Of a stretch of 64,000 bases of DNA, positions 13,008 through 21,434 are shown piece after piece. Source of the DNA: Nibricoccus sp. (lineage in GTDB: Bacteria; Verrucomicrobiota; Verrucomicrobiia; Opitutales; Opitutaceae); contig JASGHG010000001.1 in assembly GCA_047602425.1 (NCBI GenBank), positions 3,904,001 to 3,968,000 on the forward strand, read 5' to 3'. The notes beneath the pieces were generated by a model. It had not been told where the DNA came from, made no database searches, and saw nothing but the letters and a program-made list of their open reading frames with translations. The translations under genes were made by a program, and so were the position numbers. Numbering within the stretch: position 1 is the first letter of the stretch; the number at the start of each line of letters is the position of its first letter.

Positions 13008-17144
<4,137 letters not shown>

Positions 17145-17253: not shown

Positions 17254-17973
17254 ATGTCCAATCTTGTTCCTGCGCCTATTTCCACCACGCCCGACCTCGA
17301 AAAAACTTCCGCTGAAGAACGGGTTCGATGGGCGGTGGACACCTACGGCGACGGCTTGGTGCTGACGACCAGTTTTGGCATTCAAGCGGCGGTGATGTTG
17401 CATCTGGTGACGCAAGTTGCGCCGAAGATTCCCGTGATTTTTATCGATACCGGTTACTTGTTCCCGGAAACGTACCGATTCGCGCGCGATCTCACGGCCC
17501 GGCTGAATCTGAATTTGAAGAAATATGTGCCGGCATCGACCGCGGCTGAGCAGGAGGCGCTGTTTGGCAAGGAATGGGAACAGGGCGTGGAAGGACTGAA
17601 ACGCTATAATTTCCTCAACAAAGTCGAACCAATGGACCGCGCCATTCGCGAACTCGGCGCCACGGCCTGGCTGGCGGGCTTGCGACGTTCACAATCGAGC
17701 ACTCGCGAGGCGGTGAAAATTGTTCAACAGCAAAATAAAATCGCCAAAATTCATCCCATTGCCGACTGGGACAACAAGCGCGTGCATCAATATCTCACCA
17801 AATATGAGCTGCCTTATCATCCGTTGTGGGAAGAAGGCTATGTCTCGGTGGGCGACTGGCACAGTACGACCAAGCTACTCGATGGCATGAAGGAAGAAGA
17901 CACGCGCTTTGGCGGCCTCAAACGCGAATGCGGCCTCCACGAAGTTTCCGGCCGCACGGATTTTTCGATTTAG
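17254..17973 (+). CDS. cysH: Phosphoadenylyl-sulfate (PAPS) reductase
   Basis: [30 protein letters not shown] and C-terminal RECGLH. It lacks the CC/CxxC Fe-S motif of APS reductases. Confidence 0.93.
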
Positions 17974-20015
17974 GGCGTAAGCTTAAACTGCGGGTGATCT
18001 TCGATGCTCTGCGCGAAGGCGTGTTTGTCGTCCTCCGACAAATGGGCGGGATATTTGGAGCTGCTGCGGCGCCAGCGCGCGAGCCACTCGCTGTCGAGCA
18101 ATTTAGGTCTGGCGGGATGTTCGTTTGCGCCGCTGATCCGGTTGAAGGCCACGGTTGTGCTGGCTTTGGGACCGGTGCCGAGGCCTTCGCCCACGAAGAA
18201 ACCGGTGCTCAGCAGGGCGACACGCACGGCCGTCGCGGCGGAATAAGTGTAGAGCTCCGTCGACTTTGAACCGCAGTGTTGGACGATGCGGGCAAAAACC
18301 TCGGACGTCCAAAGCGCGGAGTCGGTCTTGGCGGAAAACGGATCGTAGAAAATAAGGTCGGGCACGGCCGCTTCTTCCAAGTACTCGAGGAAATCGCCCG
18401 CGAGTAGTTCCCACTGCATCAAGCCGGATGCGTGCGACCAGCGGCCATTGGCAAGAATCGCATGCGGTGCACCGTGTCGCAGATGGAGAAAGTGCGAAGC
18501 GTGGCGGGAGGCGAGTTTGAGCGGATCGAGATCGCATTCGAAACTGACCAGCCGAAGCGGACGCACCGCATCGGGGCCTTTTGCGGCGAGCGTTTGCTCG
18601 AAGCATTGGAGCGCGGCCATAGCATTGGAGGCGGCGCCGAGGCCGACATCCCAGATCACCAATTCGGAACTGTTCTCGCCGGAAGGCTTGAGCAAACGGT
18701 CGGCAAGGTGGGATTGCTCGATGTAGAGCCGGTTGGCTTCGTCGTGCGGGGCGGAAACGGAGTGCATCACTTCACCGGAGCTAACCTGTCGAATGCTGGA
18801 AAATCCCTGGGGCGATGTGATCATTTCATAGTCGCCGAGTTTCCGCCGGGCCGTCGAAGTGCCGCGCGTTTTCTTTGGGTGCAGGCACGGGTTGTCCTCG
18901 TCATTGCGCATGAGTTCGGGCCGTTTGCGTTCGTAGTAGGCGGGAAATTCGTTTCGCAAAATGCTCTCTCGCATCTCGCGCATGAGACGGTGATAAAACG
19001 CGATGTTGTGGGTGGCGAGGAGTTGCCAGGCGAGCATCTCGTCAGCTTTGACTAGGTGGTGAATGTAGCCGCGCGAATGATTGCGGCAGGTATGGCAGTC
19101 GCAGCGGGCATCGAGCGGCTCGTCTTGAAATTTGTAGACGGCGCGACGGAAGTGCATCCGGCCATGCGAAGTAAAGGCGGTGCCACGTTGCGCGAGTTGC
19201 GAGGGGATGATGCAATCGAACATGTCTACACCGCGGTGGACGGCTTCGAGAATGTCGATCGGTGTTCCTACGCCCATCAGATAGCGTGGCAAATGGTGCG
19301 GCAGGTGATCGGTGGCGAGATCGGTGAAACGATAGCGTTCTTCATGCGTTTCTCCGACGGCAAGCCCGCCGATGGCGAGTCCGTCGAACGGTAGTTTGCC
19401 GAGAAAAGCGGCGCTTTTTTTTCGCAACTCCGGATGGCAGGCGCCCTGGACGATGCCGAACAACGCCTGCGGGGAATCGCCACGGGCGCGCAGCGAGCGC
19501 TCGGCCCAGCGATGCGTGAGATGCATGGCGGCCTCGGCTTGTTCATAGGGAGCGGTTGAGGGAATGCACTGATCGAGCACCATCATGATGTCGCTGCCGA
19601 TGGCCTTTTGCATCTCGATGCTGGATTCGGGCGACAGGAGATGAACGGCGCCATCCACGTAACTCTTGAAACGCGCGCCGTCCTCGTTCATCACGCGGTC
19701 GCTGGGCAGGGAAAAAATCTGGAAGCCGCCGGAATCGGTGAGCACGGGTCCATCCCATTTCATAAACCTATGAATACCGCCAAACGCCCTGAACACCTCG
19801 GGACCGGGACGGAGCATCAAGTGATAAGTGTTGGCCAGCAGGACGGTGGAACCGGTGGCCTTGAGGCTTTCAGCGGTTTGTCCCTTGACGGTGGCTTGGG
19901 TGCCGACCGGCATGAAAACAGGGGTTTTGACCTCGCCATGGAGCGTTTGAAAGGTTGCCGCGCGGGCCTTGGAACCAGTGGACGTGTTTTCGAGTTTAAA
20001 GTTGAGACGGGACAT
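17970..20015 (-). CDS. tgt: tRNA-guanine(34) transglycosylase fused to a C-terminal MnmC/MnmD-like SAM methyltransferase
   Basis: [33 protein letters not shown] and the Zn site CDCHTC..H. The C-terminal ~290 aa carry [16 protein letters not shown] and TYSAATAVR. Confidence 0.93.
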
Positions 20016-20183: not shown

Positions 20184-21434
20184 ATGATTTCGATTCCTGA
20201 ATTGCTCGCCCCTGCCGGGGACTGGAAAAGTCTCGACGCCGCGCTCGATGCCGGCGCGGACGCGGTGTATTTTGGTGTGCGTGGCTTCAACATGCGTGCG
20301 GCGGCGAAAAACTTTACGACGCGAGATCTGCCGAAGATCGTTGCGCGCTGTCACAAGCGAAAGGTGCGGGCTTATCTTACGCTCAACGTTGTGGTATTTG
20401 AGCGTGAAATGGTGGCGTTGCAGCGCTTGTTGAAGGCGGCGAAAAAGGCGCAAATCGACGCGGTCATTGGTGCGGATTTCGCGGTACTGGCGGCGGCGCG
20501 AAAACTCGGCCTGCAAGTCCACGCCTCGACCCAGATGTCGGTCGCGAATTCGGCGGCAATTGCATTTCTTCACGGGCTGGGCGTGCGGCGTTTCGTTTTG
20601 GCGAGAGAGTGTTCGATCGAGGACATTCGCAAGATCAAGCAATCCCTGCGAACGGCCCTCGGGAAAAAGGCCGACGCTGTGACGATCGAGGCGTTTGGCC
20701 ATGGCGCGATGTGTGTCTCGATGAGCGGACGTTGTTTCCTATCCAATTTCGAAGGCGGAAAATCCGCCAATCGCGGCGAGTGCTCGCAACAGTGTCGACG
20801 GGAGTATCGCATCGTGGAGACACGTGCCGGTCAGGAATGGACCTTGGGCAAGGACTATATTCTCAGTCCAAAGGACCTTTGCACCCTGCCATTTCTGGAA
20901 AAACTGATCGACGCCGGCGTGGGCTCATTGAAAATCGAGGGTCGAAATCGCGGTCCGGAATATGTTTCGACGGTGGTCGGCGCTTATCGCCGGGCTTTGG
21001 ATTTTTACGCGAAAAATCGAGGCAAACGTGGGTGGTTAAACCAATTCGAAGAGCTAAAAACTTCGCTGGTAAAGGAAGTGGGCGATGTCTACAATCGGGG
21101 CCTCTCATCAGGTTTCTATTGTGGAAAGCCGATCGGCCAGTGGAGCACGAAACCCGACAATGCGTCGCCGATGCGGAAGCGTTTCGTCGGCACCGTGGTG
21201 AATTATTTCAAGAAACCCGCCGTGGCTGAGATTGCAGTGCAAGACGAACCATTTGGCATCGGCGATGAACTTTTCGTCGAAGGCCACACGACCGGCTTTT
21301 TCCGGCAAAAAGTGGAATCGCTTCAGATCGATTCGCAGCCGGTCGACAAAGCCCCCTCAGGCGTTCACGTCGCCCTGCGCGTCACCGAACCAGTCCGTAG
21401 AGGCGACAAGCTCTACGTCATGCGCGCGAAGTAA
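20184..21434 (+). CDS. Peptidase U32 family protein (TrhP/RlhA-like Fe-S hydroxylation factor)
   Basis: Start MISIPELLAPAG. GADAVYFG, HASTQ, LARE, HGAMC..SGRC, NRGECSQQCR, SLKIEGR. Confidence 0.9.
   Translation: MISIPELLAPAGDWKSLDAALDAGADAVYFGVRGFNMRAAAKNFTTRDLPKIVARCHKRKVRAYLTLNVVVFEREMVALQRLLKAAKKAQIDAVIGADFAVLAAARKLGLQVHASTQMSVANSAAIAFLHGLGVRRFVLARECSIEDIRKIKQSLRTALGKKADAVTIEAFGHGAMCVSMSGRCFLSNFEGGKSANRGECSQQCRREYRIVETRAGQEWTLGKDYILSPKDLCTLPFLEKLIDAGVGSLKIEGRNRGPEYVSTVVGAYRRALDFYAKNRGKRGWLNQFEELKTSLVKEVGDVYNRGLSSGFYCGKPIGQWSTKPDNASPMRKRFVGTVVNYFKKPAVAEIAVQDEPFGIGDELFVEGHTTGFFRQKVESLQIDSQPVDKAPSGVHVALRVTEPVRRGDKLYVMRAK

Follow-up and report, generated by a model that had tools for sequence, protein, structure and literature searches.

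Fusion of a Tgt paralog with an MnmC2-like methyltransferase in Nibricoccus sp., a candidate module for N-methylation of preQ1 in tRNA

In Nibricoccus sp. (Verrucomicrobiota; Opitutaceae), one gene joins a tRNA-guanine transglycosylase (Tgt) to a C-terminal S-adenosylmethionine (SAM)-dependent methyltransferase resembling MnmC2. The gene is located in a 64,000-nucleotide stretch of contig JASGHG010000001.1 (assembly GCA_047602425.1, positions 3,904,001 to 3,968,000 of the forward strand), which was analyzed over its full length and is referred to here as the window. Its architecture raises the question of whether the two halves act in succession on one base or perform unrelated tasks within a single chain. 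A previous sequence-only reading had proposed that the methyltransferase could N-methylate the preQ1 (7-aminomethyl-7-deazaguanine) just inserted by Tgt at tRNA position 34, and had named two independent wobble-modifying activities as the simpler alternative. Our analysis favors a two-step module of preQ1 insertion followed by N-methylation of the inserted base, with a probability of roughly 45%. This idea is favored by the presence of a housekeeping Tgt encoded elsewhere, by the grouping of the fused Tgts in a clade of their own, and by the coupling of the two parts through fusion or operon; all functional steps are ones that we infer from sequence.

A two-domain gene and its distribution

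The open reading frame (ORF) at positions 17970 to 20015 on the minus strand is uninterrupted, contains no stop, and encodes 681 amino acids. Assignment of domains by hidden Markov models (HMMs), which had been suggested as a check along with the sequence-only reading, yielded TGT at residues 16 to 364 (E = 3e-145) and Methyltransf_30 at residues 524 to 624 (E = 3.7e-14) in a Pfam scan. The fusion passed the Tgt model TIGR00430 (446.4 bits; cut-off, 306.75) and did not pass the MnmC2 model NF033855 (71.7 bits over residues 413 to 623; cut-off, 136). An AlphaFold model computed from an alignment of 40 fusions (pLDDT 91, pTM 0.58) showed a loose, low-confidence linker at residues 381 to 387, and matched Zymomonas mobilis Tgt with a Z score of 50.9 (root mean square deviation [rmsd] 1.8, 365 residues aligned) and Aquifex MnmC2 (3vyw) with a Z score of 23.9 (rmsd 2.7, 236 residues aligned). 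Folding of the methyltransferase domain alone from its single sequence gave no usable fold (pLDDT 38). The features of the gene, in window coordinates, are as follows.

17970..20015, minus strand: whole gene, Tgt paralog lacking two arginines ("Arg-less") plus MnmC2-like methyltransferase, 681 amino acids (P0001); from ORF, Pfam, HMMs, homologues, and fold match
18906..20015, minus strand: Tgt domain, residues 1-370; PF01702 at 16-364, TIGR00430 over cut-off, Z 50.9 to 3unt
19725..19736, minus strand: DSGG, with Asp94 equivalent to Z. mobilis Asp102 (general acid/base); 120/120 homologues
19566..19574, minus strand: DQC, residues 148-150, equivalent to Asp156, Glu157 (here Gln), and Cys158; Asp and Cys in 120/120
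19350..19370, minus strand: GGLAVGE, residues 216-222, including the preQ1-pocket residues Val233 and Glu235; invariant in 40/40 and 120/120; role from PMC3660597 (accessible part)
19215..19217, minus strand: Asp267, equivalent to Asp280, the nucleophile; 120/120
19182..19205, minus strand: residues 271-278, helix after the nucleophile, where Gln273 and Gln276 replace Arg286 and Arg289; mark of the paralog clade, from alignments
19008..19103, minus strand: zinc site Cys305, Cys307, Cys310, and His336; invariant in the 40-fusion alignment
18840..18905, minus strand: variable basic linker, residues 371-392; 36% mean identity, low pLDDT at 381-387
17973..18839, minus strand: MnmC2-like SAM methyltransferase domain, residues 393-681; NF033855 at 413-623 under cut-off, Z 23.9 to 3vyw, Z 22.2 to 2qy6
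18636..18650, minus strand: SAM-binding motif I, residues 456-460; from alignments
18336..18344, minus strand: Asp558-Pro-Phe560, equivalent to Escherichia coli MnmC Asp178 and Phe180, proposed base for the amine; from alignment, 120/120; role from PMC3648344 (accessible part)

The full-length two-domain architecture was found in all of the best 120 listed homologues (71 to 92% identity), with mean identities of 80% in the Tgt half, 68% in the methyltransferase half, and 36% in the linker. The whole fusion could be read at 78 of 85 genomic loci; of the other seven, six were truncated at contig ends and one, L073, terminates early. A set of 150 listed representatives included 15 divergent fusions, 657 to 736 amino acids long. 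Because the two-domain form recurs in homologues, loci, and divergent representatives, it is no sequencing accident, and the fusion of Tgt with an MnmC2-like domain is real. ORF, Pfam, model, and homologues hence all agree with the initial description of one 681-residue ORF holding Tgt and a C-terminal SAM methyltransferase, and the motifs quoted for it (DSGG, DQC, GGLAVGE, and the zinc site) are all present in the translation. Annotation pipelines label all listed homologues plain Tgt. The fusion itself is already known: in the accessible part of a preprint (bioRxiv 10.1101/2023.12.21.572861, Alternate routes to mnm5s2U synthesis), one main-text sentence lists TGT/MnmC2 fusions with the same domain pair (PF01702 plus COG4121/MnmC2) among four fusion types, none of them tested there, and the proteins described here may be among those in its supplementary data S3.

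Relatives of the fusion accounted for 549 of 600 pattern matches in GTDB genomes; the best 80 of these came mainly from Opitutaceae, and also from Binatia, other delta groups, and Riflebacteria. Within the phylum the gene is accessory, as it occurred in 6 of 201 genomes in one survey and 14 of 401 in another, and the genome sampled from its own genus lacked it. Its GC content is close to that of the genome (0.59 versus 0.57).

The Tgt half and the housekeeping Tgt

The Nibricoccus genome (99.97% complete) contains a separate, stand-alone canonical Tgt besides the fusion, together with QueA, QueF, and QueG. A second Tgt match was seen more widely, in 50 fusion genomes picked from the best 80 loci, with long contigs and varied taxa favored (G217 is flagged unpublished): at least two Tgt matches were present in 50/50, five of the second copies being partial or in pieces. 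Where the second copy was read, it was canonical in 19/19 genomes of the 50, and likewise in 3/3 further fusion genomes. In a set of 68 genomes, consisting of 55 fusion-positive entries, which include two duplicates, plus 13 fusion-negative genomes, QueA was present in all 68 and QueF exceeded its cut-off in 61.

When 44 stand-alone and 39 fused Tgt domains were placed in one tree, all fused domains formed one clade (39/39, support 0.975, stem 0.50), which held when split and solo forms were added (82/82, support 0.78). Since a separate canonical Tgt is present and the fused domains form a separate clade, the Tgt half is, as judged from its sequence, a paralog and not the queuosine-pathway Tgt of its host. 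It shares with Tgt of Z. mobilis and E. coli (TIGR00430) the fold (TM 0.95 of target), the catalytic and pocket residues, and the zinc site, but differs in its separate phylogenetic position, in the four replacements described below, in always being seen alongside a canonical copy, and in carrying or neighboring a methyltransferase.

Residues kept in fused Tgts (Z. mobilis numbering) are Asp102, Asp156, Cys158, Gln203, Val233, Glu235, Asp280, and the zinc site; the catalytic Asp102 and Asp280 and the zinc site were invariant in 40/40 and 120/120 sequences. Cys158 and Val233, also kept in 120/120, are marks of preQ1-inserting Tgts (PMC3660597, accessible part), which bears out what had been said of the Cys in DxC and the Val in GGLAVGE. 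What had been missed was the loss of two otherwise constant arginines. Arg286 was present in 44/44 stand-alone domains versus 0/39 fused ones (Gln273 in the fusion studied here), and Arg289 in 44/44 versus 2/39 (here Gln276; 4/120 among the best listed homologues). Two further positions changed in parallel, Glu157 (44/44 versus 2/39) and His127 (42/44 versus 2/39). Of the residues by which E. coli Tgt binds the tRNA stem, Lys285, Lys292, and Arg320 (PMC13416341, section 7), the latter two have equivalents in Lys295 and Lys323 (120/120), while the equivalent of Lys285 is not kept; Lys52 of the Tgt half is kept as well. The accessible part of PMC5395182 places Arg286 beside the ribose-34/phosphate-35 pockets and says nothing further, and a search of the literature for text on the role of Arg286 and Arg289 returned nothing beyond this placement. 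The loss of both arginines suggests that the loop read by the paralog may not be, or not only be, the U33-G34-U35 of the housekeeping enzyme.

With respect to zinc binding, the housekeeping Tgt of this genome (L001:1459-2595; G000:C1:3678984-3680057) was itself found to lack the CxCxxC motif, as did 9/9 other Opitutales-type housekeeping Tgts checked (L154-L162); the motif is kept in the fused paralog and in 10 Tgts from other phyla. As a weak observation, the fusion lies within approximately 10 kb of a queuosine gene in 4/50 genomes (L062, L163, G223, and G234, near tgt, queF, queA, and queF, respectively).

The Tgt half might instead be a back-up queuosine Tgt with specificity for GUN anticodons, or mainly a module presenting tRNA to the methyltransferase, so that nothing new would be made. 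The score above the Tgt equivalog cut-off and the retention of Lys52, Asp267, and the stem binders are in line with this, Arg277 may compensate for the lost pair, and one protein (P0317) keeps both arginines. However, a back-up enzyme would be expected to replace the stand-alone copy occasionally, which was unseen in the 50/50 and 3/3 genomes, and in a mere binding module Asp102, Asp280, and the base pocket should decay, yet they are invariant, and the Tgt half is better conserved than its partner (80% versus 68%). We consider this explanation improbable.

Equally low odds are given to a coupled system with another order or target, in which free preQ1 would be methylated before insertion, or the acceptor would be rRNA, mRNA, DNA, or protein. 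Other enzymes with the Tgt fold have come to act on DNA (DpdA; Z 26.4 in fold matching) and on protein (Cap10; Z 20.1), bacterial Tgt accepts hairpins other than tRNA (PMC4425180, accessible part), and the anticodon-side arginines are gone. Against such a shift, the Tgt half is approximately 46% identical to canonical Tgt versus 15 to 16% to DpdA and Cap10, the tRNA-stem binders are kept, and the surroundings offer no conserved neighbor and no defense or phage link. No neighbor was conserved among 80 fusion loci, the most frequent one occurring in 13/80. A phage link was rejected, as 0/19 viral Tgt loci matched beyond the Tgt domain and 15/15 readable ones were canonical, and so was a plasmid link (no plasmid match).

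The methyltransferase half and its link to the paralog

The catalytic residues of E. coli MnmC2 include Glu101, Asp178, Phe180, and Lys236 (PMC3648344, accessible part). Their equivalents were kept in the 120 homologues as Glu493 (119), Asp558 (120), Phe560 (120), and Lys/Arg617 (120), and the MnmC2 fold was the best structural match (Z 23.9 to 3vyw and 22.2 to 2qy6), followed by spermidine synthases (Z of at most 17.5). The proposed resemblance to the MnmC methyltransferase thus holds for both the fold and the amine-methylation residues, as well as for the SAM motif. The domain differs from MnmC2 in its identity of only ~20%, in staying below the NF033855 cut-off, which was also missed by 23/23 relatives (best score, 104.3), and in its partner, an Arg-less Tgt and not MnmC1 or MnmL. 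It forms a subfamily of its own, distinct from the remaining MnmC2 homologues in the phylum (E ≤ 1e-71 versus ≥ 1e-41). Judged by these sequence tests, the fusion would work like Tgt and MnmC2, yet for each of the two families there is one defining test that it does not pass. In other classes of the phylum, MnmC2 homologues of 570 to 640 amino acids were found (L295-L308), and the YtqA radical SAM motif present in 4/14 of those checked resembles published MnmL/MnmC2 fusions. Double matches in many phylum genomes had been considered as two Tgts; most of the second matches were other MnmC2 homologues, and this count was left unused.

Unfused relatives of the methyltransferase are numerous; with 32 of these aligned as query, the best 80 of 569 metagenome loci were inspected. 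In 22 the methyltransferase was fused, in 17 it was located directly downstream of a Tgt gene, and in 3 a Tgt gene lay 1.5 to 4.8 kb upstream. The remaining 38 showed no Tgt in view (19 with at least 1.5 kb of upstream sequence visible, 19 with too little flank). In 11 of the 17 adjacent loci an ATG or GTG start overlapped the Tgt stop, and in 3 more a CTG did; as the same junction appeared in six contigs with sequence variation, it does not represent a read error. Of the 42 Tgts accompanying the methyltransferase, 39 were readable, and none was canonical (0/39), since all 39 lacked both arginines. Split forms branched early, and fused members appeared at three places among them, which indicates repeated fusion or fission. 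Because the query was kin of the fused domain, kinship of the hits was expected, and the informative part is the operon layout together with the lack of canonical Tgts. The phylogenies of the two parts agreed closely (Mantel r 0.88 for 34 pairs and 0.88 for 15 unfused pairs); this was not counted as independent evidence, as it follows from shared descent.

The strongest rival explanation is that the methyltransferase is an ordinary MnmD, converting 5-aminomethyl(-2-thio)uridine [nm5(s2)U34] to its methylated form mnm5(s2)U34 by the ammonium route, as in Aquifex, and that the paralog has a separate job, both being co-regulated accessories of the anticodon loop. We regard this as a serious possibility, at odds well short of even. 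Its nearest solved fold is Aquifex MnmC2, the MnmC2 catalytic residues are all kept, and MnmC2 is known to be fused with several partners (bioRxiv 2023.12.21.572861, accessible part). On the other hand, it leaves unexplained why only the Arg-less Tgt adjoins the methyltransferase, and why stop and start codons overlap and fusion was repeated. The score is far below the MnmC2 equivalog cut-off (71.7 versus 136), only one Tgt was found in 4/5 genomes with more distant MnmC2 homologues, and G192, a single case, holds the fusion together with an MnmM-like gene.

In the phylogenetic profile that had been proposed as a further check, QueA was universal in the 68 genomes, and PF05430 was confined to fusion-positive ones: the fusion domain was the sole strong match in the 55 fusion-positive entries, and no match was found in the 13 fusion-negative genomes. 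The MnmM profile was uninformative, since its match in 1/51 fusion genomes is close to a similarly low base rate (4/151 in one host phylum; 0/3 in fusion-negative kin).

A proposed two-step module and the case against it

In the two-step module favored here, the specialized second Tgt would bind a tRNA-like stem-loop and exchange guanine for preQ1, supplied by the normal queuosine pathway of the host. Once preQ1 is in place, the MnmC2-like partner would use SAM to N-methylate its free aminomethyl group, by the same chemistry as that of MnmC2 on nm5U34. Such sequential action appears the most economical link between a preQ1 inserter and an enzyme family whose known target is an aminomethyl group at position 34. 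The predicted product is 7-(methylaminomethyl)-7-deazaguanosine. QueA needs a primary amine, so that methylation should block it and prevent further extension of this product. Action on GUN tRNAs would therefore compete with queuosine, and the lost arginines would offer a way out of that competition through a different loop. The module might thus perhaps act in non-GUN tRNAs. In a fuller scheme, which we hold to be unlikely, an unrecognized Arg-less Tgt subfamily with changed anticodon reading would, with its methyltransferase, place N-methyl-preQ1 at wobble positions of non-GUN tRNAs, e.g., those for Phe, Cys, or Ser-GCU. It would occur in Verrucomicrobiota, Binatia, Bdellovibrionota, and further phyla from the environment, and would constitute a second 7-deazaguanine wobble pathway beside queuosine in the same cell.

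A similar logic is known from phages, where DpdA2 and DpdM make mdPreQ1 in DNA, so that N-methyl-preQ1 is a natural base (bioRxiv 2023.04.13.536721, accessible part). The two systems would share preQ1 insertion followed by N-methylation, and the proposed base. The phage system acts on DNA, and DpdM is a DUF3109 metal-binding protein and not a Rossmann SAM methyltransferase, in contrast to the MnmC2 fold of the fusion domain. A Pfam search of the fusion for DUF3109, with its cysteine metal motif, gave no match; PF01702 and PF05430 were the only ones.

Several observations weigh against the two-step module. The methyltransferase occurs without the paralog: of 401 phylum genomes, 16 carried the subfamily, 14 fused and 2 unfused without the paralog; the latter two, G551 and G530 (98 to 99% complete), have a single canonical Tgt. 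Nineteen of the 80 metagenome loci, seen as loci only, likewise lacked Tgt despite at least 1.5 kb of upstream sequence in view. Conversely, 11 proteins of 523 to 540 amino acids (P0365, P0366, P0374, P0375, P0380, P0381, P0384, P0388, P0401, P0410, and P0413) form a conserved group in which the Arg-less Tgt is intact but the methyltransferase is truncated, without motif I or the catalytic Asp, and apparently dead. About 20 solo paralogs of 378 to 418 amino acids were also found (two of which carry the source label Bdellovibrionota), and solo and truncated paralogs are nested among fused forms. Since kin are not independent, the counts given above are inflated. In the Nibricoccus genome, the fusion domain is the sole PF05430 member, MnmE and MnmG are present to make the substrate nm5U34, and a search for MnmM, MnmL, and MnmC1 found none, so that the fusion domain fits the MnmD slot. 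With respect to the Tgt half, Arg277, one place after the Arg289 site, is present in 119/120 sequences of the close clade and might stand in there for Arg289, and Arg286 recurs in 2/120 proteins of a separate set, including P0317. The loop argument assumes that Arg286 and Arg289 read U35 and its phosphate, as reportedly seen in the 2003 Z. mobilis Tgt-RNA structure. The solitary methyltransferases (2/16 genomes), its decay in 11 paralogs, and its standing as the only nm5U methylase candidate beside MnmE and MnmG all speak for an ordinary MnmD, which keeps that part of the simpler alternative standing, while its other part, an ordinary Tgt, is weakened.

In the literature searched, which covered few subscription papers, N-methyl-preQ1 was found for phage DNA only; the other papers returned for methylated preQ1 dealt with O6-alkyl or synthetic analogues. 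Nothing was found there on any link between a second Tgt and a methyltransferase (including the accessible part of a 2026 review), on an Arg-less Tgt clade, on its co-occurrence with canonical Tgt, or on operon coupling to an MnmC2 subfamily. The accessible main text of bioRxiv 2023.12.21.572861 makes no mention of a second Tgt, lost arginines, or split operons.

In the window, the fusion is flanked head to head by a peptidase U32 family gene (20187-21434, plus strand), whose best match is TrhP (tRNA U34 hydroxylase), under cut-off; such a gene was near the module in 2/160 loci. On the other side lies a convergent cysH (17254-17973, plus strand; phosphoadenosine phosphosulfate [PAPS] reductase), which overlaps the fusion stop by 4 bases and is not conserved as a neighbor, followed by a gene for a 1,378-residue hybrid sensor kinase (13008-17144, plus strand) with an N-terminal part of beta-propeller type, as read from the translation. 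No Rfam match was found in the window, and no promoter or terminator above chance. Among the sequencing runs listed, there was one DNA entry, at a share of 0.09, and no RNA holder. Elsewhere in the genome, two tRNA arrays related to each other (G000:C1:2388522-2391778 and 2425174-2431080; 16 and 22 genes, including tRNA-Arg(GCG)) are probably on mobile elements.

Bacterial Tgt is regarded as a single enzyme acting on a single set of targets. The results point to a second, widespread Tgt clade in which the active site is intact, residues on the RNA side are altered, and a methyltransferase serves as dedicated partner, and this clade predicts a tRNA base unreported in the literature searched. 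If true, it would represent a new branch of deazaguanine biology and provide a Tgt of different loop specificity that would be useful for site-specific RNA labeling. Even if the partner were an ordinary MnmD, the target of the paralog would be a directly testable question.

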